44,521 nt of DNA from a virus. Lineage: Duplodnaviria > Heunggongvirae > Uroviricota > Caudoviricetes. The notes beneath the pieces are model-generated. The model saw nothing but the letters and a program-made list of their open reading frames with translations, was not told the DNA's origin and did not search any database. The translations under genes and the position numbers were made by a program. Where the stretch lies: positions 1 through 44,521 of the IMG/VR virus record IMGVR_UViG_2541047878_000001, one strand, 5' to 3'. Position 1 is the first letter of the stretch. Each line of letters begins with the position of its first letter. Positions 4,140 to 44,521 of the stretch are shown here, piece by piece.

Positions 4140-4440
4140 TGCCCCCGTAGGGGCGGTTAGTTTCTCCACAAAACAGAGAAGAACACCTGCGGTGGCAGCC
4201 GCCCGGATGGATTGGGTTATGAGCCCGTCGTCCGGTGATGCTCTTCTCTGTTTTGTAAAAAGGACGGTACCAGCCGGAAGCAAGGGTACAAACTGGTACC
4301 TCCAGGACTACACACAGCATAAAGTTGTGGTGCCGGGTGCCTCCCGGTGCCTGGCGAAGGTTGCACACCAGGCGGGTGGGTATCCACAGAAGGTCGACTG
4401 TCAGCCTCAACCTTAACCCGCGTGCGCTGAGCCGCATTCA
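4140..4440. ncRNA. Candidate structured non-coding RNA (unclassified); strand not determined
   Basis: GC-rich block with overlapping short ORFs in several frames, a perfect 15-bp inverted repeat (ACAAAACAGAGAAGA near 4169 / TCTTCTCTGTTTTGT near 4241) enclosing GC-rich sub-hairpins, and hairpin GCCCC-CGTA-GGGGC at 4141-4155. Confidence 0.2.
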
Positions 4441-4719: not shown

Positions 4720-4995
4720 TCAGGAAACAGTTGGCTGATGCTCTTCGAGTGCGACTTTCTGACCAATTTTCTGAAATGTACTCTCCGAATTTGGACAAAT
4801 AGAAAAAGGCCATTTCCATTCAGGGTCTGATGGAAAGACTTCAGCCTGTTCTAAAGCACGGCGTAAAGAGAACACAACTCCAGCCATAATCTGATGTTTC
4901 CCATTGGTCCAGCTATTGCCGCTCTGATCTACAGGAGCGGCTATGTCGTATGACCAAACGACTTCACCACTATTGTTTAAAATCTGGACTTTCAT
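4720..4995 (-). CDS. Hypothetical small protein (91 aa)
   Basis: ORF with GGAGG upstream, adjacent to the stop of the 5004-5225 ORF; overlaps a plus-strand ORF (4557-4802), so the call is tentative. Confidence 0.3.
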   Translation of the reverse strand: MKVQILNNSGEVVWSYDIAAPVDQSGNSWTNGKHQIMAGVVFSLRRALEQAEVFPSDPEWKWPFSICPNSESTFQKIGQKVALEEHQPTVS

Positions 4996-5003
4996 TTTGT
5001 TCT

Positions 5004-5225
5004 TTAACCTCCAGATTTCCGCGCATCTAAAGGCGCATTCTCATTTGGTGTGAACTGAATAGTTGTGCTGATATTGATTAATGCCCCGACACACAAGACT
5101 ACGCACTCAGAGCAGATAGCAACTTCATCTTTTCCGCCTTTGGCGATGATTTTTTTTGCCTGCAGCTCGTTTGCGCCACAAAACGAGCATGTGAAATAAC
5201 GGTTCATTTTCGCTCTCTTACACAT
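5004..5225 (-). CDS. Small zinc-ribbon protein resembling the ClpX N-terminal zinc-binding domain
   Basis: CSFCG...(19 aa)...ICSECV spacing similar to the ClpX ZBD C4 motif; first gene downstream of the putative PL/OL region. Confidence 0.4.
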   Translation of the reverse strand: MCKRAKMNRYFTCSFCGANELQAKKIIAKGGKDEVAICSECVVLCVGALINISTTIQFTPNENAPLDARKSGG

Positions 5226-5313
5226 AGTATTTAACGAATCATCCGGTCATTCATACGCCACCGGCGGCTACTTCGTGGGCGTCCTGCCTGTCCGTGATAG
5301 CTTACATTATGTT

Positions 5314-5352
5314 GCTACTTAAAGTAGCAGAAATCAACAACAAAAAGTAGAT
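5314..5352. promoter_or_regulatory. OL-like operator cluster (putative CI binding sites, PL region)
   Basis: Perfect 15-bp palindrome GCTACTTAAAGTAGC (5314-5328) and a further AAAGTAG half-site, related to the repeats in the cI-cro intergenic region. Confidence 0.4.
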
Positions 5353-5429
5353 ATTTGTTGTTGTCTATGATTTTTCTATAATTAATTGAAAGTTAAATGT
5401 TTTTGCTGATTTACGGTAATGACTCCAAC

Positions 5430-5933
5430 TTATTGATAGTGTTTTATGTTCAGATAATGCCCGATGACTTTGTCATGCAGCTCCACCGATTTTGAGAACG
5501 ACAGCGACTTCCGTCCCAGCCGTGCCAGGTGCTGCCTCAGATTCAGGTTATGCCGCTCAATTCGCTGCGTATATCGCTTGCTGATTACGTGCAGCTTTCC
5601 CTTCAGGCGGGATTCATACAGCGGCCAGCCATCCGTCATCCATATCACCACGTCAAAGGGTGACAGCAGGCTCATAAGACGCCCCAGCGTCGCCATAGTG
5701 CGTTCACCGAATACGTGCGCAACAACCGTCTTCCGGAGCCCGTCATACGCGTAAAACAGCCAGCGCTGGCGCGATTTAGCCCCGACATAGCCCCACTGTT
5801 CGTCCATTTCCGCGCAGACGATGACGTCACTGCCCGGCTGTATGCGCGAGGTTACCGACTGCGGCCTGAGTTTTTTAAGTGACGTAAAATCGTGTTGAGG
5901 CCAACGCCCATAATGCGGGGTGTTGCCCGGCAT
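5430..5933 (-). CDS. insB: IS1 InsB (transposase frame, expressed as InsAB' by -1 frameshift)
   Basis: 167-aa ORF overlapping the insA 3' end within IS1. Confidence 0.85.
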
Positions 5934-6127
5934 CCAACGCCATTCATGGCCATATCAATGATTTTCTGGTGCGTACCGGGTTGAGAAGCGGTGTAAGTGA
6001 ACTGCAGTTGCCATGTTTTACGGCAGTGAGAGCAGAGATAGCGCTGATGTCCGGCGGTGCTTTTGCCGTTACGCACCACTCCGTCAGTAGCTGAACAGGA
6101 GGGACAGTTGATAGAAACAGAAGCCAC
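5852..6127 (-). CDS. insA: IS1 InsA
   Basis: 91-aa ORF with zinc-finger-like CPSC...CSHC inside IS1. Confidence 0.85.
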
Positions 6128-6295
6128 TGGAGCACCTCAAAAACACCATCATACACTAAATCAGTAAGTTGGCAGCATCACCTGATTTACTATGCTATAA
6201 ACTGAAAATATCGCACGAAGTTGGAGTAGGTATTGAGCAAGGTGAATTATGAGGAGGGAGTTTTTTATGAGATTAATCAGGGAGAAAGAAGAGTA

Positions 6296-6318
6296 AAGCC
6301 CGGTTATGCGGCCGGGCA
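6296..6318 (-). terminator. Putative terminator downstream of the ParA-like gene
   Basis: GC hairpin (GCCCGGCCGCATAACCGGGC on the minus strand) followed by a T-rich tract. Confidence 0.35.
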
Positions 6319-6324
6319 CATGCA

Positions 6325-7401
6325 TTACTTTGTAAGTTCTAGAACTCGTTGAGCCAGCCCTTTAAATTGTTCGTTAAAGGCGTCTCTGCTTGATTTCATT
6401 GTATTTAAGGCATGCCCAAATTGCCCTGAATCGCGAATTTGCTGATCACTGATGGAGAAAACAGGTGTCGCTAGTTGTTGGCTTATTGCGATTAATGAGT
6501 TGAAATCGGAAATATGCGCAAGATCATAGGCTGATAAATCTCCACTGACTGTTGTTTTGTTAATTGCATGTTGCACTTTATCTCGTGGAATTATGCAGGT
6601 AATTTTTTCTAGATTTGGCACTAAGATCGAATCAACAGCATCACGGATAGCTGCCATCCATTTTTCGAAAGATTTTACAGGTGCTCCTTTACGCGGCCTG
6701 TATCTCTGCTGAATCATACCTAGAAACTGCGGTGCATTTTTAATTGATTGTGAAGAGTTACCATCATTATTTTCTTTAAATAATGCTAATTCTTTGTGCC
6801 AGCGAGGTATATTTTTTGAGAGAGAGCGAATTGCTTGCCAGCAAAAAAAGTCTGGAGCTACAGGTACGATAAAATAGTCACTTGACATGAGAACTACTTC
6901 ATTTAAACCTCCAATATTAGGGCTGAGATCATAAAGAATGTAATCAATATTATTCTTCATGGCGATTAGCTGTAATATTTTTGGCAGGTTCCCTGGTATA
7001 TTTCTTGTAGCAGGAATACCAGCAGCAATTTTTAGAGAAACACTTATCTGTGAATCTAAGTCCGAAACATCTAAATGTCCGGGAAGAAGCAGAAGGTTTT
7101 CATGCAGTGTAGGGTGTAATTTTCCCGTTTCTTTTTCAAGGTATGCTTCAGGTTGTCCGCCATTAATCAAATATTCTACAATAGGTCCAAGAGTTAAGTT
7201 ATCTCTGCTAGAATAAAAAGAATCTAAACCCTCATCAATCTTTTCATAGCCAAGAACCATTCCTGTTAGATTACATTGCGAATCAAGGTCAACCATCAAT
7301 ACTTTCTTGCCTTCATCCGCAAGTGCCCATCCAAGATTGAAGGTTGTTGTGGTTTTACTTACCCCACCTTTATGATTAAAAAAACAAATTGATTTTGTCA
7401 T
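6325..7401 (-). CDS. ParA/MinD-like ATPase with C-terminal extension (358 aa), orphan
   Basis: Deviant Walker A NHKGGVSKTT and ParA-like N-terminal region; AT-rich by eye; sits between the OL-like operators and cI, co-oriented with cI; no parB-like partner nearby. Confidence 0.7.
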   Translation of the reverse strand: MTKSICFFNHKGGVSKTTTTFNLGWALADEGKKVLMVDLDSQCNLTGMVLGYEKIDEGLDSFYSSRDNLTLGPIVEYLINGGQPEAYLEKETGKLHPTLHENLLLLPGHLDVSDLDSQISVSLKIAAGIPATRNIPGNLPKILQLIAMKNNIDYILYDLSPNIGGLNEVVLMSSDYFIVPVAPDFFCWQAIRSLSKNIPRWHKELALFKENNDGNSSQSIKNAPQFLGMIQQRYRPRKGAPVKSFEKWMAAIRDAVDSILVPNLEKITCIIPRDKVQHAINKTTVSGDLSAYDLAHISDFNSLIAISQQLATPVFSISDQQIRDSGQFGHALNTMKSSRDAFNEQFKGLAQRVLELTK

Positions 7402-7571
7402 ATTTCTCTATCCTTTCGACCCCCAGTATATTGTAATTTACGCTGGGTGATTATTTTATATTGTTAATGATAATGTTTAATAAAAATAAGAGAGTAAAAC
7501 AACTATTAGTAATAGCGCTTGCTTGCTAAATATTATTTTTTTACCTTTAGTTCTATAGTCTAAACGAAGAA

Positions 7572-8276
7572 CTAAAGCCGGTTGTATTTAATTGATTCGT
7601 GTATCAATGCTTTGCCCATAACATAAAGTTGATCTTGGGACTTCTCATCAATGTACCATTTCTCATAGGCTGGATTATCCGAAAGAACGGCGAGTTTGTT
7701 GCCTTGCATTTGTAGACGTTTAACGTGGAACGTCTTACCATAAACGAAAGAGTAAACACCATCAGTTTGGAAGTTGCGAACAGAAATGTCGACAAACAGT
7801 CGATCTCCGGAAACTAGAGTAGGGGACATGCTGTCGCCATTTACAGTCATAACTTTAATATCATCTTGAGAACGATTACCGAAAAGAGAACGGGCATGCT
7901 CTGTTGTGAACTCAATGGCGTAGAGCACATCAACATAGTCTGAAAGCATATAGGTCCCAGGTCCTGCGCTAACGCTAAGATCCAAAACTTCTATCCTGTA
8001 TACATCGGGTTTTGTTGGATTGGGGATGCTTGCCATTTCCTTACATCCTTCTCTCTCGCCAACACCATATTCTAAATATGAAGCTGATACCCCCAGAGCC
8101 AATGCAAGTTTATTCATGACAGAGGCACGAGGCTTCGCAGCGCCGATTGTGTATCGCCGCGCCATTTCATATGTAACGCCCACAAGACTTTTGAGTTGGG
8201 TGACAGAAATTCCCTTGTTTGTCATTAGCTCGTTTAGTCTCTTGGCGAAATCTGGATACTTCTGTTCTTCTACCAT
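7572..8276 (-). CDS. cI: CI-like repressor (HTH plus LexA-like S24 peptidase domain)
   Basis: N-terminal HTH (MTNKGISVTQLKSLVGV) and C-terminal S24-like domain (VNGDSMSPTL...GKTFHVKRL); start ambiguous between 8276, 8312 and 8333, and 8276 leaves a typical operator-containing intergenic region. Confidence 0.8.
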   Translation of the reverse strand: MVEEQKYPDFAKRLNELMTNKGISVTQLKSLVGVTYEMARRYTIGAAKPRASVMNKLALALGVSASYLEYGVGEREGCKEMASIPNPTKPDVYRIEVLDLSVSAGPGTYMLSDYVDVLYAIEFTTEHARSLFGNRSQDDIKVMTVNGDSMSPTLVSGDRLFVDISVRNFQTDGVYSFVYGKTFHVKRLQMQGNKLAVLSDNPAYEKWYIDEKSQDQLYVMGKALIHESIKYNRL

Positions 8277-8314
8277 AGGTAGAAGATTACTCGCATCACA
8301 TACGCTAGTCATTT

Positions 8315-8350
8315 CTATTTTAAGTAGTTGCATTTTGCTATTTTAAGTAG
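8315..8350. promoter_or_regulatory. OR-like operator repeats in the cI-cro divergent promoter region
   Basis: Two copies of CTATTTTAAGTAG (8315-8327, 8338-8350) 23 bp apart between divergent cI and cro. Confidence 0.45.
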
Positions 8351-9576: not shown

Positions 9577-10518
9577 ATGAGCACTAAATTAACCGGCTAT
9601 GTATGGGATGGTTGCGCTGCATCAGGCATGAAGTTATCCAGCGTGGCAATTATGGCCCGCCTGGCTGATTTCAGTAATGACGAAGGTGTGTGCTGGCCAT
9701 CAATTGAAACCATTGCCCGTCAGATTGGCGCGGGGATGAGTACCGTCAGAACGGCTATCGCACGGCTGGAAGCAGAAGGCTGGTTAACGCGTAAGGCGCG
9801 TCGCCAGGGTAACCGCAATGCGTCGAATGTTTATCAGCTTAACGTTGCGAAGCTTCAGGCAGCGGCATTTTCTCAACTGTCAGATTCTGACCCGTCAAAA
9901 TCTGACGCATCAAAATCTGACCCGTCAAAATTTGATGCGTCGAAATCTGGCAAAAAAGCGGGTTTTCACCCGTCAGAATCTGGCGGGGATCCGTCAGTAA
10001 AATCAAAACATGATCCGTCAGATAAAAAAACTTCTCGTCCGGACGCTTCGCAACCGGACACGCAGACGGCTGAACAGGAGTTTTTAACTCGCCATCCTGA
10101 TGCGGTTGTATTCAGCCCTAAAAAGCGCCAGTGGGGAACGCAGGATGATTTGACCTGCGCACAGTGGCTCTGGAAAAAAATCATCGCCCTGTACGAGCAG
10201 GCCGCCGAATGTGACGGCGAGGTGGTTCGTCCCAAAGAACCGAACTGGACAGCCTGGGCAAACGAAATTCGCCTGATGTGTGTGCAGGATGGTCGTACTC
10301 ACAAACAAATCTGCGAGATGTACAGCCGCGTCAGCCGCGATCCGTTCTGGTGCCGTAACGTGCTCAGCCCGTCGAAGCTGCGGGAAAAATGGGATGAGCT
10401 TTCCCTGCGCTTATCGCCGTCCGTCAGCACGTACACCGAAAAACGCGAAGACCCGTACTTCAAAGCCAGTTACGACAACGTGGACTACAGCCAGATCCCG
10501 GCAGGATTCAGGGGGTGA
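9577..10518 (+). CDS. Replication initiator with N-terminal wHTH (lambda O-like role), iterons inside the gene
   Basis: N-terminal helix-turn-helix (SIETIARQIGAGMSTVRTAIARLEAEGW) and an internal SKSD/PSK repetitive linker encoded by tandem DNA repeats. Confidence 0.6.
   Translation: MSTKLTGYVWDGCAASGMKLSSVAIMARLADFSNDEGVCWPSIETIARQIGAGMSTVRTAIARLEAEGWLTRKARRQGNRNASNVYQLNVAKLQAAAFSQLSDSDPSKSDASKSDPSKFDASKSGKKAGFHPSESGGDPSVKSKHDPSDKKTSRPDASQPDTQTAEQEFLTRHPDAVVFSPKKRQWGTQDDLTCAQWLWKKIIALYEQAAECDGEVVRPKEPNWTAWANEIRLMCVQDGRTHKQICEMYSRVSRDPFWCRNVLSPSKLREKWDELSLRLSPSVSTYTEKREDPYFKASYDNVDYSQIPAGFRG
9880..10035. repeat. Iteron array (putative replication origin) embedded in the initiator gene
   Basis: Four tandem 15-bp units TCTGAC(C/G)C(G/A)TCAAAA at 9886-9945, further CCGTCAGAA-like copies to about 10020, then an A-rich tract (GATAAAAAAA). 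Confidence 0.55.
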
Positions 10519-38783: not shown

Positions 38784-39338
38784 ATGCTTATTGGCTATGT
38801 ACGCGTATCAACAAATGACCAGAACACCGATCTACAACGTAATGCGCTGAACTGTGCAGGATGTGAGCTGATTTTTGAAGACAAGATAAGCGGTACAAAG
38901 TCCGACAGACCAGGACTGAAAAAGCTGCTCAGGACATTATCGGCAGGTGACACGCTGGTGGTCTGGAAACTGGACCGACTGGGGCGCAGTATGCGGCATC
39001 TTGTCGTGCTGGTGGAGGAGTTGCGCGAACGAGGCATCAACTTTCGTAGTCTGACGGATTCAATTGATACCAGTACCCCAATGGGGCGCTTTTTCTTTCA
39101 TGTGATGGGTGCCCTGGCTGAAATGGAGCGTGAACTGATTGTTGAACGAACAAAAGCTGGACTGGAAGCTGCTCGCGCACAGGGACGAATTGGTGGACGT
39201 CGCCCCAAACTTACACCAGAACAATGGGAGCAGGCCGGACGATTAATTGCAGCAGGAATTCCTCGCCAGAAGGTAGCGATCATCTATGATGTTGGTGTAT
39301 CGACACTGTATAAGATGTTTCCGGTCGGAGATAAATGA
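38784..39338 (+). CDS. Serine DNA invertase (Gin/Pin/Hin/Cin family)
   Basis: N-terminal catalytic region MLIGYVRVSTNDQNTDLQ and C-terminal HTH; start at ATG after AGGGGG; adjacent to the invertible fibre segment. Confidence 0.85.
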   Translation: MLIGYVRVSTNDQNTDLQRNALNCAGCELIFEDKISGTKSDRPGLKKLLRTLSAGDTLVVWKLDRLGRSMRHLVVLVEELRERGINFRSLTDSIDTSTPMGRFFFHVMGALAEMERELIVERTKAGLEAARAQGRIGGRRPKLTPEQWEQAGRLIAAGIPRQKVAIIYDVGVSTLYKMFPVGDK

Positions 39339-39377
39339 AACCGCAGGCTCGTCGTATGCAAGATCGTGCTGCGGTTT
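39338..39377. repeat. Repeat family copy a (imperfect hairpin; also terminator-like)
   Basis: AAACCGCAGGCTCGTCGTATGCAAGATCGTGCTGCGGTTT; about 89 percent identical to the core of copy b by hand alignment. Confidence 0.5.
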
Positions 39378-39396: not shown

Positions 39397-40266
<870 letters not shown>

Positions 40267-40356: not shown

Positions 40357-40435
40357 AAAAACCGCAGGCACGTTGTATGCAAGAACGTGCTGTGGCTGGC
40401 TGGTGAACTTCCAATAGTGCGAATATTGAATGATG
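40357..40435. repeat. Repeat family copy b
   Basis: AAAACCGCAGGCACGTTGTATGCAAGAACGTGCTGTGGCTGG... shares its left core with copy a and about 65 bp (about 86 percent identity by hand) with copy c. Confidence 0.5.
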
Positions 40436-40592
40436 TCCAGCCGTTACCGTTTTTACGTGTTTATTAGTGAACAAACCACTCGTCAGCAGACTCCTAGGTA
40501 TGAACAAAAGTTTTAGCTGAAACTCTATCTGTGGTGCGCGTAACAGAAGTGTAATAAAAGGCCCTAGAAAAGGGCCTAAGATTAGCAAAGAT

Positions 40593-40735
40593 TATCCTCG
40601 ATACTTAGAGGCAGGAATTTTGATAGGAAAGGCTGCCAAGCCTTTTTGACGAGCAAAGATCCGTTTACCTTTGACCGTAATAAAAGGACGGTAAATTGTG
40701 ATGTATTCCTCAGATACAGCTTTTTCAATGGTCAT
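40593..40735 (-). CDS. Small ORF (47 aa), not in the supplied ORF track
   Basis: ATG..TAA ORF read by hand (MTIEKAVSEEYITIYRPFITVKGKRIFARQKGLAAFPIKIPASKYRG), followed on the minus strand by hairpin AGGCCCTTTTCTAGGGCCT plus T-run. Confidence 0.3.
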
Positions 40736-40761
40736 ATCGTGTTACCTGTAAAGTTTCGCTG

Positions 40762-40862
40762 TTGACAAAACCTAAGGTAAGCGTATACTCACAACCGCCA
40801 AGTTTTTCGTATTTGCTTACGATAGGAGAAGCCAGCGACAGCGGTTCGCTGGCTTTTTCGTT
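40762..40862 (+). ncRNA. Candidate small RNA: near-consensus sigma-70 promoter followed about 45 nt later by an intrinsic terminator
   Basis: TTGACA, 17-bp spacer, TATACT at 40762-40789, then hairpin GCCAGCGA-CAGCGGT-TCGCTGGC plus TTTTT at about 40833-40860. Confidence 0.3.
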
Positions 40863-41394
40863 ATCTTTTTGCATTTTTTCTCATCCAAGTTTCAGCCGCT
40901 TGTTGACTGACACCAAATGTTTTGCTTATATCTTCAACAGTCATTGTGGGCAAAACTAGTCTTGAGTCAATTAAGAAGTGGCTTGCAAAAACATCTGCTT
41001 GCCATTCGCTGTCTTCATAGATTTTATGCCCTCCACTAGTCTTATTACGTGCATAGATACTTTGATTGCGATGCATGACTAAATGACCAAGTTCATGCGC
41101 AACAGTGAATCTCGCATGGTTCTCACCATTGCACACTGCATCGTAAACAGATCGCTGTAAAACAATTTTGTTCTTATCTGGATAAGTCACTGCATAGCGT
41201 TTGGGCAGTTCATGATCTTCAACAATTTCTAGCTCAATGCTTTCTGAGGCCATAAGACCTTCTAGTAATACATCCAGTCTCAGATATGTGTGATTTGATA
41301 TCTGAAGAACGTCTCTCAGACGATGAGCGTATGATTTAATCATGCTGGTGCTGAGAGGTGAAACGCGATGGCCAAGTTCTCGTTTCGCAATCAT
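40861..41394 (-). CDS. ImmA/IrrE-family zinc metallopeptidase
   Basis: HEXXH motif (FTVAHELGHLVMH) in a 177-aa protein immediately downstream of, and coupled to, an XRE-family HTH gene. Confidence 0.7.
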   Translation of the reverse strand: MIAKRELGHRVSPLSTSMIKSYAHRLRDVLQISNHTYLRLDVLLEGLMASESIELEIVEDHELPKRYAVTYPDKNKIVLQRSVYDAVCNGENHARFTVAHELGHLVMHRNQSIYARNKTSGGHKIYEDSEWQADVFASHFLIDSRLVLPTMTVEDISKTFGVSQQAAETWMRKNAKR

Positions 41395-41397
41395 TAT

Positions 41398-41775
41398 TCA
41401 GTCCTTTAACATTTTATTAAGCTTATCGAGTTGCTCTGGACTCAGGTCCTTAAATTTACGAGCAAAAACAAGCATTAGTTCTTTGTTCTGCTCATTTGCA
41501 TCCGACATATCAACCTTAATGGACGGTTGAGAAATCTCTGCCTGTTTCTTGAGATTGATGATGTCTTGTCCGCTAAGCTCAAAAGTTGTTGCAATCGTAT
41601 TTACTAATGAGTCCGGTATAGCTCTTTTGCCTAATTCAATGGCGGATAAGTAAGCCGAACTAACGCCTAACAGATCAGCCATATTTTTGAGCACCATACC
41701 CCGGTCTATTCTCATTTTTCTGAGAGTCTTACCAAAGCTAGTTACCATGTTGCGCCTCCTACAATCCATGCTCAC
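41398..41775 (-). CDS. XRE-family HTH transcriptional regulator (ImmR-like)
   Basis: HTH (LRKMRIDRGMVLKNMADLLGVSSAYLSAIELGKR) at the N-terminus; upstream partner of the ImmA-like gene. Confidence 0.7.
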   Translation of the reverse strand: MSMDCRRRNMVTSFGKTLRKMRIDRGMVLKNMADLLGVSSAYLSAIELGKRAIPDSLVNTIATTFELSGQDIINLKKQAEISQPSIKVDMSDANEQNKELMLVFARKFKDLSPEQLDKLNKMLKD

Positions 41776-42081
41776 TTATACTAAAAACCAAACTCAAGAT
41801 CAACAAAAATTGTAGAATTTTTTAATCTCAGCGTGTGATGACAATCTACATAAAATCATGAAATGGTGCAAGGCGTAACTTAAAAAATACCATATGTAGT
41901 GTCAATTTTATGTGCTGTATGGATATATGGGGTTGGTAAACTTTTGCTCTTTTGTGCTCCTCAGCTATATGGTTGTTTGATTTTTGAACATCTTGTGGAA
42001 CATAAATTGGGTTTATGCTTTTCCCTTTCGGTGACAACATGTTTATAGGATGTATAATCCATAAAAAAAGGAGGGGATGGC

Positions 42082-42843
42082 GTGCAAAAGAATTTGTTAC
42101 AATTATGCTACGAAGGAGAGTGTGGAGAAAATTATATCCGTAGCATGAATGAAAAAGGGCAGATTTTTGTTTCACTTTCAGATGTGCTAAGAACGCTTTC
42201 TGCTGAGAACAGAAAACTGGATGGAAAGACTTCTCAAAGCTTGCTCACTGTAATAAGAGCGGTAATAAAAACTTTAGATCCAGATGAGTTTAGGAATGTT
42301 TCTCTTGTCGTGGATGGTGAAACTATCTCTGAGGTATTTCTTACTGAACCAGGTCTATATAGAGTACTTGCTCAGGATACTACTGCTGCGGGGAAAAAAT
42401 TCCAACGCTGGCTTTTTCATCAGGTCCTTCCGTCTATTCGTGAATTTGGTGTATATCCTCCGCCACCTAAGCAAGAACGTTCAGAACTGAGTGCTTTTGC
42501 TAACAGTCTGCAGCAGACGGTTCAAGCATTGGTAATGGAAATAGAAAAACGTGAAGAGTTAGAAAGTAGAGTAAACCAAGTTGAACTAAAAGTTAACTCG
42601 TTAGAAAGTTTAAGAGATTTGTCTCAGTTCAGAAGTGTTCCTCAACGATTGATGGAGTTAGGTTTGGATACCTATTCGGTTGAGGAGCTTTGGCAATGGT
42701 GTGAAAAATTGCGTAGTGAACGTGGAGCAGAAAGAATTAAGTGCCCCTCCGGATTGAATATAAATTCTTGCTATCCATTAGCTTTGGTTGATGAAGCTAT
42801 CGCTATATACCAGAAAGTAGTTGAGGCAAGAACACGTCAGTGA
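42082..42843 (+). CDS. Bro-N domain protein (antirepressor-like)
   Basis: Bro-N-like region (FLTEPGLYRVLAQDTTAAGKKFQRWLFHQVLPSIREFGVY) and coiled-coil C-terminus; divergent from the XRE/ImmA pair; GTG start after AGGAGG. Confidence 0.6.
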   Translation: MQKNLLQLCYEGECGENYIRSMNEKGQIFVSLSDVLRTLSAENRKLDGKTSQSLLTVIRAVIKTLDPDEFRNVSLVVDGETISEVFLTEPGLYRVLAQDTTAAGKKFQRWLFHQVLPSIREFGVYPPPPKQERSELSAFANSLQQTVQALVMEIEKREELESRVNQVELKVNSLESLRDLSQFRSVPQRLMELGLDTYSVEELWQWCEKLRSERGAERIKCPSGLNINSCYPLALVDEAIAIYQKVVEARTRQ

Positions 42844-42857
42844 GCTTGAGGGAAAAA

Positions 42858-42885
42858 AAAGCCCGCATAAGCGGGCTTTTTTATC
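42858..42885 (+). terminator. Rho-independent terminator
   Basis: A8-GCCCGC-ATAA-GCGGGC-T6 hairpin immediately after the Bro-N gene. Confidence 0.6.
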
Positions 42886-43007
42886 ACTCGGGAGCTGCGG
42901 CTCCTTTGCGTATCCTTTTTTGTCTCCTCACCGTCTGGTCGGTGTCCTGCTGAGACTGCTAACATCCTGTTTTTGTTGGTGTTGTCCTTACACCGTCCAA
43001 TCATGAT

Positions 43008-43040
43008 TGGTGGAGCTGGCGGGAGTTGAACCCGCTGACA
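43008..43040 (-). other. tmRNA (ssrA)-like 3'-terminal fragment (T-arm plus acceptor plus CCA), candidate att-site remnant
   Basis: Minus strand reads GTCAGCGGGTTCAACTCCCGCCAGCTCCACCA, matching the 3' end of enterobacterial tmRNA as I recall it; no tmRNA body or tRNA 5' half is present. Confidence 0.35.
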
Positions 43041-43105
43041 CGTCGTATGCAAGAACTTGCTGCGGCTGGATGGTGGACTTTCGATAGTGCGAGTATTGAA
43101 TGATT
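43031..43105. repeat. Repeat family copy c
   Basis: CGCTGACACGTCGTATGCAAGAACTTGCTGCGGCTGGATGGTGGACTTTCGATAGTGCGAGTATTGAATGATT, about 86 percent identical to copy b over 65 bp (hand alignment). Confidence 0.5.
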
Positions 43106-43474
43106 TCCATCTATTATAGATTTTACCGTATTTCGGCATGAATGAAACTGAATATCCTCCCACCGACCCTCCATGACTTTACACCACTGTCTCTGGGGCT
43201 GCTATGTGCCAAAAGCGGACATAACGACACGTTAGTTAGAAATCTCAAGACCAATTAGGTTGGATACTTACATGTATACTATTGCCTAACGATACTACCC
43301 TATCAACCTCATGGTTTATAGGCGGGGGTGAGAGCCAATCGAACGCTATCGTACGTTTTTATGCTGTCTACCCTAGACCCCAAGTAGACATGAATCTTAC
43401 CTGATTTCCATACGAGGGCGACGTTGATCATCCAGCTTTAGTGCGAGCACTGAACTTAACATTTACCAGCAATA

Positions 43475-44521
43475 GTGATATTTTCTACAAAGAAAAATAT
43501 ATGGAATAACGTCATCGCGGGTACAAAAATGACTATAAAAAAAACATATGTAACACCAACAGAAATAGTGAAATATTTTTATGACAAACCGGAAAACGAT
43601 AACGTAAAAGAGAGAAAAACAATTGAGAGCCTGACCCGTCTCAAACCTGAGTGGGAAAATACTCTCGATATGATGAAGTTAATACGCAATTGTGAAAAGC
43701 TAGCAACTGAAGGTATTTTAATGGAATTGTCTTCAGGACATACTCTTTTTGACCGTTGCTATTTCGCACCGAATTTCAATGAATCAGATGCGAAATATGG
43801 AAAGTATGATTTTATAGCTGATGGATTTGAGTCAATCATAGACCGCCTTAGTCCTTCCGTTTTACCTGTTGTTGTTGAAAAAAGTGATGGTTCACATGAT
43901 CTTGGTACTAGTTTTATTGTTGGGAATAACCACACGATATTTACAGCCAGACATGTTATTGAAGACATGAAGAGTATCAGGATACTTAGAGCTGGTGGTG
44001 AGGCTTTACCAATACATAAAATCTTTGTATCTAACGATGAACGTATTGATATCGCTTTAGTTTTCACAACCATTCCGAATGAAGATAATATTCAACCACT
44101 TAAGGTCTCAACCAAAGCCTCGGTACTGGATGAAATTTTATCAATAGGATTTCCACCCATTCCAGGATTTGATGCATTAAAGTTATATGACGTTTCGCAT
44201 ATAAATTCGTTTGTCCGACTGTCAAAGGGGCGAATTGTTGGTTCTGGTCACTCTTACTTAGATTCACAAGACTTTTTATTATTCAATGCTAGGGTTAAGG
44301 GGGGGAATAGCGGTGGCCCTATAATTAACAAATACGGCCTTGTTGTTGGTATGCTTGTACAAATACCAATATCATCTGAGGACAGTTCAAAGATTGATAA
44401 CCTTGGATATGGTATAGCTGTAACAGGAAAAAGCCTGCTGGATGCCATTACATTTACAGAAAATGGCCGCGAATTAACACTCACCGACCGAGGAAATGGA
44501 GAATATTCAACTCTAGCATAA
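43475..44521 (+). CDS. Trypsin-like serine protease with uncharacterised N-terminal domain (348 aa)
   Basis: Catalytic triad context FTARHV, IDIAL and GGNSGGPII in the C-terminal half; N-terminal roughly 140 aa unassigned; AT-rich; true start may be an internal ATG. Confidence 0.55.
   Translation: MIFSTKKNIWNNVIAGTKMTIKKTYVTPTEIVKYFYDKPENDNVKERKTIESLTRLKPEWENTLDMMKLIRNCEKLATEGILMELSSGHTLFDRCYFAPNFNESDAKYGKYDFIADGFESIIDRLSPSVLPVVVEKSDGSHDLGTSFIVGNNHTIFTARHVIEDMKSIRILRAGGEALPIHKIFVSNDERIDIALVFTTIPNEDNIQPLKVSTKASVLDEILSIGFPPIPGFDALKLYDVSHINSFVRLSKGRIVGSGHSYLDSQDFLLFNARVKGGNSGGPIINKYGLVVGMLVQIPISSEDSSKIDNLGYGIAVTGKSLLDAITFTENGRELTLTDRGNGEYSTLA

Follow-up and report, generated by a model that had tools for sequence, protein, structure and literature searches.

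What does a phage-borne XRE repressor control when it is encoded together with its own metallopeptidase? ImmA/XRE pairs are annotated by the thousands, and their targets are usually obscure. Here, we address this question for one such pair in IMG/VR virus record IMGVR_UViG_2541047878_000001 (Caudoviricetes), of which positions 1 to 44,521, a stretch of 44,521 nucleotides (nt), are referred to below as the window. The window DNA is that of Escherichia coli (100% identity to strains A22, A32, and others) and spans a prophage inserted at tRNA-Thr(CGT), and the region under study lies at the tail-fiber/invertase end of this prophage. An initial annotation, made from the letters of the DNA, had described there an XRE helix-turn-helix (HTH) gene coupled to an ImmA/IrrE-type protease gene, a divergent Bro-N gene with its terminator, a promoter-terminator unit, and a 47-amino-acid (aa) open reading frame (ORF), all of which we find at the same positions, and we agree that XRE and ImmA are a prophage-borne pair of the ImmR/ImmA-CapH/CapP kind. 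The small RNA (sRNA) predicted from the promoter-terminator unit and the 47-aa ORF, which were peripheral in that annotation, now appear to be core partners of XRE/ImmA, with the sRNA predicted to be cis-antisense to the immA-orf47 intercistronic RNA. As judged from sequence conservation, the conserved unit is composed of xre, immA, the cis-antisense sRNA, and the 47-aa ORF.

Linkage of xre, immA, and a small-protein gene

The xre gene (positions 41398..41748, minus strand) encodes a 116-aa HTH repressor (Pfam HTH_19, HTH_31, and HTH_3) that is CapH/ImmR-like over its full length (PADLOC capH, 1.2e-10, residues 3-115). On the same strand and starting 3 nt past the xre stop codon lies immA (40861..41394), whose product is a 177-aa M78 zinc metallopeptidase (Pfam Peptidase_M78) made up of the peptidase and a short HTH-like tail, with no GAF domain. 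Alignment of 24 ImmA sequences shows residues H100, E101, H104, and E130 to be invariant, and both the HEXXH motif and the third zinc ligand are intact. The third gene, orf47 (40592..40735, minus strand), encodes a basic protein of 47 aa with a pI of 10.3. The xre, immA, and orf47 genes would form one minus-strand operon, ended by an intrinsic terminator (40559..40577, minus strand) that the initial annotation had overlooked.

The association between these three genes extends far beyond the window. ImmA homologs at 87-57% identity, found in Salmonella, Edwardsiella, Serratia, and Providencia, are always preceded by a 116-aa XRE and always followed by a small ORF carrying the enterobacterial core motif EE[YF]ITI[YF]RPFITVKGKRI[FY]AxQKGLxAF. 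The full-length XRE and ImmA pair is retained in 15 distant genomes, with carriers in Wohlfahrtiimonas, Vibrio, Rheinheimera, Pseudomonas, Morganella, Clostridia, Tissierellaceae, Veillonella, Acetomicrobium, and Treponema, and most of these loci have a small basic ORF, recognizable or variant, 120-200 nt downstream of ImmA. At this distance, a small protein accompanies the ImmA subfamily in Enterobacterales, Vibrio, Clostridia, Veillonella, and Synergistota. Trios with a recognizable small protein also occur in Clostridia, Tissierellaceae, and Aliidiomarina, and a variant small protein occupies the same slot in Wohlfahrtiimonas, Vibrio, Morganella, Escherichia sp., Acetomicrobium, and Veillonella. 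The search can also be anchored on the small protein, in which case ImmA lies directly upstream on the same strand in 11 of 15 diverged viral loci; for the variant small proteins that we call group 2, ImmA ends 136-199 nt upstream in 51 of 54 viral loci. The linkage of the trio thus holds whichever gene, ImmA or small protein, serves as the anchor. At XRE-ImmA loci of Pseudobutyrivibrio, Treponema, and Erysipelotrichaceae, the small ORF is replaced by a conserved protein of ~225 aa (starting SQINCTR.GCRDVFHAFLVE...). Because the trio is kept together while the Bro-N gene comes and goes, as detailed below, we consider XRE, ImmA, and the small protein to be the conserved protein-coding unit.

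The orf47 product appears to be the founding member, in this work, of an unannotated small-protein family. A profile search of 1.84e9 representative proteins returned 65 clusters at E<=1e-3, nearly all of them stand-alone proteins of 37-87 aa, which share the core motif [IV][IV][FYC][RT]P[YFW]IT[VLI]K(N)GKRI[YFW]A..G[LK]KAF. Neither Pfam nor NCBIfam gave a match to the orf47 protein, and no PHROG family matches the protein of the window itself; its relatives match PHROGs of unknown function, weakly for the Providencia and Firmicute proteins (phrog_4533) and strongly for the group-2 variant (phrog_33859). The AlphaFold (AF2) model of the protein is confident (pLDDT 86) and depicts a beta-sheet protein that has no structural match in the PDB. 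Its sequence has a GRAVY of -0.13 and no hydrophobic stretch.

A predicted antisense RNA in the immA-orf47 spacer

The spacer between immA and orf47 measures 126 nt, and its opposite strand encodes the predicted sRNA. The sRNA promoter, TTGACA-16-TATACT (40762..40789, plus strand; -35 at 40762-40767, -10 at 40784-40789), matches the sigma-70 consensus at 11 of 12 positions; its spacer is 16 nt and not 17 nt as first annotated. Only one other site in the whole 44.5-kb window, counting both strands, reaches 11 of 12 positions, namely, the promoter of the Bro-N gene (42031-42058), and local shuffles yield a mean of 0.55 such sites, which places the promoters above chance. The transcript would run from ~40796 to ~40866 on the plus strand, a length of ~67-71 nt close to the ~65 nt first proposed, and would consist of a conserved single-stranded 5' end (ACCGCCAAGU), a first hairpin (40807-40822), and a terminator hairpin (40825-40859) with a U tract. 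Its predicted fold (-26.8 kcal/mol) stands out from that of shuffled sequences (z = -4.2). The terminator abuts the immA stop codon, and the RNA is fully complementary to the last immA codons and to ~65 nt of the immA-orf47 spacer.

The conservation of this unit follows a pattern of its own. Between the window and the viable lambdoid phage LLS, which carries the same genes, coding sequences share ~75% identity, compared with ~97% from 6 nt before the sRNA -35 element to ~20 nt past the terminator, and the few differences inside the sRNA unit are located in hairpin loops. Across seven variant enterobacterial loci, the sRNA unit shows 92-98% identity compared to 73-80% for immA, xre, and orf47. 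Six of these seven loci, all viral contigs, were retrieved by the sRNA promoter sequence and are therefore biased, the seventh being LLS, which was retrieved through Bro-N. Loci reached through ImmA are free of this bias, and those of Salmonella, Edwardsiella, Serratia, and Providencia keep the -35 and -10 elements, the 5' hairpin, and the terminator of the sRNA; in Providencia, the terminator stem is swapped in a compensatory manner, with CCAACA/TGTTGG in place of GCCAGCG/CGCTGGC. In a sliding comparison of seven lineages, identity peaks at 0.72-0.92 over positions 40760-40850 and amounts to 0.42-0.58 on either side.

The same hairpin could also form in the sense transcript, where it might act as a terminator or stabilizer of the xre-immA mRNA, the promoter being fortuitous and the high identity a trace of recent recombination; that the enterobacterial variants number only about nine, with few compensatory pairs, is compatible with such an account. 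We give it hardly any credence, since among 25 loci from several phyla, 20 have an antisense-strand intrinsic terminator near the ImmA stop codon, with the T run after the hairpin, compared with 4 that have one on the sense strand, and a promoter together with a terminator is found in the antisense orientation in 10 of 25 loci and in the sense orientation in none (0/25). Moreover, a promoter-like site at the right distance recurs in unrelated sequences (Providencia, Clostridia, Aliidiomarina, and group 2), and the -35 element and the U tract form the exact limits of the identity peak.

Nor does a protein on the other strand explain the constraint. RefSeq lists a 49-aa ORF (WP_001519526; 40725-40874, minus strand), overlooked in the initial annotation, that overlaps the sRNA on the opposite strand. 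A 1-nt indel breaks its frame in LLS, and the ORF is absent or different in Edwardsiella and Serratia. Since the frame is broken by an indel, the constraint on the sRNA region is not on a protein, and WP_001519526 is probably a misannotation. The RNA belongs to no Rfam family at gathering thresholds, and at E<=10 the hits over 40796-40866 are mere noise (the BTnc005 hit scores 16 bits against a gathering score of 175). The complement of its seed, AACTTGGCGGTT, has no site in the window except the cis site itself, and matches with two mismatches occur at chance level. Taken as a gene prediction, the short RNA is strongly supported by conservation and looks real.

The proposed switch and the role of the small protein

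The region upstream of xre harbors the elements expected of an autoregulated operon. The proximal xre promoter, TTGATC-17-TATAAG (-35 at 41798-41803, -10 at 41775-41780, minus strand), is overlapped at its -35 element by the probable XRE operator, the inverted repeat TTCTACA-N5-TGTTGAT (41800..41817, minus strand). The position of this operator is conserved, and it takes the form of perfect palindromes with other half-sites in Serratia (TTCAACA-N5-TGTTGAA) and Providencia (TCTACAA-ATA-TTGTAGA); an inverted repeat that co-varies in this way is probably a typical autoregulatory XRE operator. A promoter-like element further upstream, TTGCAC-17-TAGATT (41843..41871, minus strand), is kept in position and sequence in seven lineages and may serve as a second promoter. 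No sense-strand promoter for orf47 is conserved among 16 loci, which suggests that orf47 is expressed only by read-through from the xre promoter (P_xre). Lacking a promoter of its own, each orf47 mRNA would carry the full complement of the sRNA.

From the anatomy of the locus, the two-way linkage of the trio, the conserved antisense promoter and terminator, and the intact catalytic residues, we infer, with moderate confidence, a protease-gated transcriptional switch that drives one conserved output, the small protein, whose expression would be held down by an antisense RNA. XRE would autorepress the operon from the inverted-repeat operator that overlaps its promoter. Upon a trigger such as DNA damage or infection, ImmA would cleave XRE, in analogy to ImmR/ImmA, DdrO/IrrE, and CapH/CapP, and orf47, the only other conserved gene behind P_xre, would be the output of the module. 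The strongly promoted and presumably constitutive sRNA would keep orf47 silent until derepression out-titrates it. We propose this silencing role because every orf47 transcript bears the full sRNA complement, and it could be exerted by duplex formation and decay, by interference from convergent transcription, or by blocking a long-range mRNA pairing that frees a sequestered Shine-Dalgarno (SD) sequence.

Comparison with characterized XRE-protease pairs puts the module close to them and yet apart. As in ImmR/ImmA (ICEBs1, phi105) and DdrO/IrrE, the gene for an XRE repressor would share a transcript with that for a small M78 (COG2856) metallopeptidase (~170 aa) whose HEXXH motif and downstream Glu are intact, a putative inverted-repeat operator suggests autoregulation, and the carrier is a mobile element. 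In contrast to ImmR/ImmA, a conserved third gene for a 35-50 aa protein and the predicted antisense RNA come after the protease, and the genes divergent from xre vary and are not excision or transfer genes. ImmR/ImmA pairs control the excision, transfer, or lytic genes of their own element from a divergent promoter; here, the neighbors are variable and the host phage LLS has a separate immunity repressor, with P22-like CI/Cro besides the cassette (as we call the segment with the trio and, in the window, Bro-N). Among PADLOC profiles, those of CapH/CapP (Lau et al. 2022; Calloji et al. 2026) match best (capH at 1e-10 along the entire protein; capP at 5e-15, but only over profile positions 31-146 of 242), and the zinc ligands are equivalent (H100/E101/H104/E130 here versus H97/E98/H101/E128 in CapP), as is the defense-gene neighborhood. 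CapP comprises peptidase, HTH, and a C-terminal GAF domain in ~288 aa, and not all of its homologs carry the cysteine switch (Calloji et al. 2026). The present protease, in contrast, is 177 aa long and ends without a C-terminal GAF domain, its residues 105-129 (LVMHRNQSIYARNKTSGGHKIYEDS) contain no cysteine and hence no CapP-type cysteine-switch loop, and the only conserved output is found downstream in the same operon and not in a divergent one. By analogy, this protease would work like ImmA and CapP, yet it is not a CapP.

The most likely role of the orf47 product is that of a growth-arresting or anti-phage effector. This suggestion comes from context, that is, from the defense hotspot in which the locus is found, from the self-contained mobile cassette, and from the analogy with Xre-COG2856-toxin and type I toxin-antitoxin (TA) systems. 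Makarova, Wolf and Koonin (2009) predicted three-component Xre-COG2856-toxin systems that are abundant in phages and prophages; as proposed here, the protease removes an Xre repressor that restrains a harmful third component. Their toxins are RelE or PIN proteins and their Xre and protease are often fused, whereas the present locus has a new small-protein family and an antisense RNA layer. With type I TA systems (hok/sok, tisB/istR-1), the locus shares a small ORF beside a ~70-nt antisense RNA predicted to be constitutive, a ribosome-binding site predicted to be sequestered, and a frequent location in prophages. It differs in that the protein is basic and soluble-looking instead of a hydrophobic membrane peptide, in that pairing with the sRNA would involve the intercistronic sequence that precedes the ORF instead of the ribosome-binding site, and in that the ORF comes third in its operon, after the repressor and protease genes. 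The module could thus be viewed as combining a three-component XRE-protease-toxin system with a type I toxin under antisense control. Tentatively, one may go further and see in it a new, phylum-spanning class of prophage-borne abortive-infection or toxin systems with two locks, the protease on transcription and the antisense RNA, acting against an activating mRNA pairing, on translation, which together would guard a beta-sheet effector of 35-50 aa with a conserved cellular target. We found no account of the trio or of the small-protein family in literature searched for CapH/CapP/ImmA, for COG2856/toxin-antitoxin/Xre, and for ImmA prophage antisense RNA, a search whose coverage excluded most subscription journals. 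One large ImmA/XRE subfamily now has a defined, testable candidate output. If the small protein is an effector, it would represent a new small toxin or defense family and a natural case of protease-gated transcription combined with antisense-gated expression of the output, and annotation pipelines would do well to call the ~40-aa ORF and the sRNA after such an ImmA and to drop the spurious antisense ORF.

One way in which the sRNA might act is suggested by group 2. There, the first sRNA hairpin has co-varying stems, and its loop (CCUCUUGG) is identical to an element just 5' of the orf47-type SD. We had considered this loop as an anti-SD and dropped the idea, since it is identical and not complementary to the SD-proximal element. 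The identity implies that the loop of the upstream hairpin in the sense mRNA is complementary to the SD-proximal element, and we reinterpret the role of the group-2 sRNA as possible competition for this upstream mRNA hairpin. Among 12 diverged group-2 representatives, the own-locus duplex has a mean of -10.6 kcal/mol compared to -8.1 +/- 0.7 kcal/mol for permuted partners, and 19 of 20000 permutations were as good as the own-locus pairing. In the window, the SD of orf47, AGGUAA (40742..40747, minus strand), is predicted to be largely paired in the mRNA, a prediction shared by the whole set of seven enterobacterial homologs. An anti-SD region of the operon mRNA (40771..40782, minus strand; GCUUACCUUAGG), which corresponds to the DNA of the sRNA promoter spacer, contains UUACCU, complementary to the SD, and is predicted to pair either with the SD or, alternatively, with an upstream mRNA element (40815..40826, minus strand; CCUAUCGUAAGC) that is complementary to both the sRNA and the anti-SD region. 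The alternative duplex, 40815-40826 with 40771-40782, is predicted at -13.6 kcal/mol. Between Enterobacteriaceae and Serratia, the own duplexes (-13.6 and -14.7) beat the cross pairings (-8.9 and -11.3) in both directions, and both pairing partners change together in Serratia and Providencia; Providencia has the own-versus-cross advantage in one direction only, and viral contig L128 does not fit.

A comparable arrangement has been described for IncI-alpha/IncB repZ/repA, where, in the account of Asano and Mizobuchi (1998) as cited in PMC8053102, the antisense Inc RNA binds an upstream hairpin and thereby blocks an activator pseudoknot near the SD. The features in common with that account are an upstream hairpin loop complementary to sequence by a sequestered SD, an antisense RNA of ~70 nt fully complementary to the hairpin, and, in group-2 loci, covariation between loop and SD-proximal element. 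The likeness is one of mechanism only, as the genes and the replicon type are unrelated, no leader peptide is evident here, and folding predicts little or no effect on SD accessibility in the window's group. The immI region of phage P22 offers another parallel in sar, a short antisense RNA in the intercistronic spacer of a phage regulatory operon that limits expression of the downstream gene. P22 sar overlaps the ribosome-binding site of ant, whereas the sRNA described here does not overlap that of orf47, and the proteins differ.

Several observations weigh against the proposed switch. Constrained partition-function folding of the seven enterobacterial homologs showed that, when the sRNA target is blocked, the probability of the SD being unpaired falls in two of them, the window (0.44 to 0.32) and LLS (0.33 to 0.19), and stays the same in the five others. 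The structural-switch version is weak for the window's group because SD sequestration does not rise consistently, and duplex-triggered decay or convergent-transcription interference would be equally plausible there. The window ImmA lacks the GAF domain and the cysteine switch, by which CapP senses single-stranded DNA (ssDNA). Unlike most type I toxins, the orf47 protein is not hydrophobic, and the libraries searched yielded neither a homolog of known function nor a structural match for it. There are also natural insertion mutants: insertion sequences (ISs) interrupt the cassette in 4 of 34 E. coli carriers, and one of them, IS1203, truncates xre in strain EC02, which is viable. EC02 is uninformative on toxicity, because IS1203 also cuts immA and orf47 off from the promoter. 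In strain LZSFT34, an IS3 is found right before the start codon of orf47, and ISEc52 disrupts bro in ET490 and, judging from hit annotation only, likewise in ET670. Collectively, the insertions are compatible with a cost of orf47 expression and are too few to argue from. Lastly, a regulatory cofactor would account just as well for the tight co-inheritance of orf47 with one ImmA subfamily.

This last point leads to the main rival explanation: the small protein would serve the switch as a cofactor, for instance as an activator or inhibitor of ImmA or as a feedback partner of XRE, and XRE would control other genes in trans. A small, basic, beta-rich protein is compatible with nucleic-acid binding and might by this means replace the GAF sensor that is missing from ImmA, and its co-inheritance with the protease across phyla is far tighter than that of CapH/CapP-type effectors, which vary freely. 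We nonetheless consider the cofactor role unlikely, since the cassette travels whole among unrelated phage types and insertion points and has no other constant neighbor, which leaves a regulatory trio nothing constant to control. Moreover, the 225-aa protein that occupies the small-ORF slot in three Firmicute/spirochete loci resembles effector swapping.

A selfish, post-segregational addiction cassette that stabilizes the prophage, in which an unstable antisense RNA and the repressor would keep a stable toxin mRNA or protein in check, would share its architecture with hok/sok-type type I systems and with the Xre-COG2856-toxin systems (Makarova et al. 2009), and its patchy spread (34 of 5426 complete E. 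coli genomes, none of them from a laboratory strain and all copies being near-identical) would be in keeping with it. However, enterobacterial plasmids, on which addiction modules thrive, essentially lack the subfamily; the sole plasmid matches are at 36-38% identity, 16 of 18 of them in Acinetobacter. Since the locus also sits among defense genes at prophage ends, and simple addiction needs no protease-gated trigger, we regard this explanation as decidedly improbable. An effector released by the protease-gated switch remains our preferred interpretation.

The Bro-N gene and the prophage end

The gene divergent from xre (42082..42843, plus strand) encodes a 253-aa Bro-N protein (Pfam PF02498, residues 19-117, 31.7 bits versus a cut-off of 25.6). 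It has a promoter, P_bro (GTGACA-16-TATAAT, 42031..42058, plus strand), with 11 of 12 consensus positions, and a terminator hairpin (42848..42889, plus strand) formed by an inverted repeat and a T run. The initial annotation had included this gene in the regulatory module, and a reading in its spirit would make Bro-N the target: XRE/ImmA would be a second induction switch, and cleavage of XRE would free Bro-N to inactivate a prophage repressor. The geometry is that of CapH/CapP, whose target operons are always upstream and on the opposite strand, adjacency is retained in E. coli, Salmonella, and LLS despite ~75% DNA identity, the protein matches PHROG anti-repressor families, and recurrent Xre-Bro pairs have been remarked on (Makarova et al. 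2009). The partnership nevertheless dissolves in a wider sample. Trios stand without an adjacent Bro-N gene in Serratia, Providencia, Edwardsiella, and the viral contigs L015, L016, and L128, and the position divergent from xre is taken, depending on the locus, by Bro-N or by an ORF of 63 or 106 aa, or is empty. Conversely, close Bro-N homologs occur without XRE/ImmA at Yersinia prophage ends (4762-6756 of those loci), divergent from a RhuM gene, and in Methylovulum (6001-8339 of those loci), between glyQ and glyS, with an AAA_15/AAA_21 ATPase and a protein of 165-183 aa.

The sequence around P_bro points in the same direction. Its near-consensus hexamers are kept in LLS and Salmonella, and its spacer and flanks have diverged among the window, LLS, and Salmonella, so that no conserved operator is visible there; no copy of the xre operator overlaps P_bro. 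Past residue 117, the Bro-N protein has no Pfam match at all and hence lacks the C-terminal ANT/KilAC domain (PF03374) of classical Ant proteins, which is carried only by weak, distant relatives (E 1e-5 to 1e-3). Control of Bro-N by XRE thus seems rather improbable to us, and the gene is an independent passenger with its own promoter and its own terminator hairpin, probably expressed constitutively. Of the second independent induction switch first suggested, the part that stands is that the module is additional to the phage's own immunity, as shown by the CI/Cro genes of LLS, and the part that falls is Bro-N as a member, with trio and Bro-N each occurring without the other and P_bro showing no conserved operator. 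More generally, a divergent Bro-N gene beside XRE/ImmA is not automatically its target. The RhuM and ATPase contexts hint at a defense-related role for this Bro-N subfamily.

Within the spacer between xre and bro, a LexA box was sought by eye; the candidate, CTGT-N8-ATGG at ~41912, is only a half-match and was rejected. The Serratia locus alone carries a perfect LexA-box-like sequence (CTGTATATAAACACAG, ~4350-4366), which lies upstream of the 63-aa gene divergent from xre. The spacer of the window also holds a 49-codon ORF with a strongly hydrophobic product (41899-42048, plus strand; MSILCAVWIYGVGKLLLFCAPQLYGCLIF...), which is probably spurious, given how little of this stretch is conserved from lineage to lineage.

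The prophage end is a row of cassettes divided by three diverged direct copies of an ssrA-3'-like sequence (39338-39374, 40359-40456, and 43008-43126). The order is PD-T4-3, then the trio with Bro-N, then an S1 peptidase. The left edge of the cassette studied here is the ssrA-3'-like copy at 40359..40456 (no strand assigned), a direct repeat with 82% identity to 43029-43126, which we read as a diverged att scar. At its right edge (43008..43126, minus strand), 28 nt identical to the 3' end of ssrA are joined to a diverged tmRNA-like stretch with a weak tmRNA match (23 bits, E 1e-6). Read as att scars, the three copies look like a cassette-exchange hotspot within a thrW-integrated prophage; for the attR of the prophage, a thrW direct repeat was sought within the window and none was found. 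In strain S1-KEN-03-A, where it closes a lambdoid prophage, the same cassette adjoins an intact ssrA, and in LLS it lies directly beside attP. Instead of the satellite or island remnant first proposed, the locus is a moron-type cassette of prophage ends or att sites that is present in a live phage.

The neighboring slots make this setting a moron/defense hotspot. On one side, a LEM-3-like GIY-YIG protein (39397-40170, minus strand) is a full-length match to PD-T4-3, a known single-gene defense system (PADLOC 7e-140). In strain LZSFT34, a retron Ec48 effector lies just beyond the right end of the cassette, where the window has the att scar and then the S1 peptidase. Considered as a whole, the cassette bounded by att scars would hold two independent prophage morons, the four-part module of xre, immA, sRNA, and orf47 and the Bro-N gene, a view that is our best explanation and whose chances of being right or wrong we judge to be evenly balanced.

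Two further features of the window were recorded. The S1 peptidase is a trypsin-like, stand-alone protein whose gene (43529-44521, plus strand) reaches the last base of the window and closes on its stop codon; in PADLOC, the protein weakly resembles the protease portions of RT-Protease, LmuA, and HamA, and it is a possible defense gene because its place is the next cassette slot. Six tandem TCAAAATCTGACCCG-like units with 15-nt spacing at 9865-9987 are probably the iterons of the prophage replication origin.

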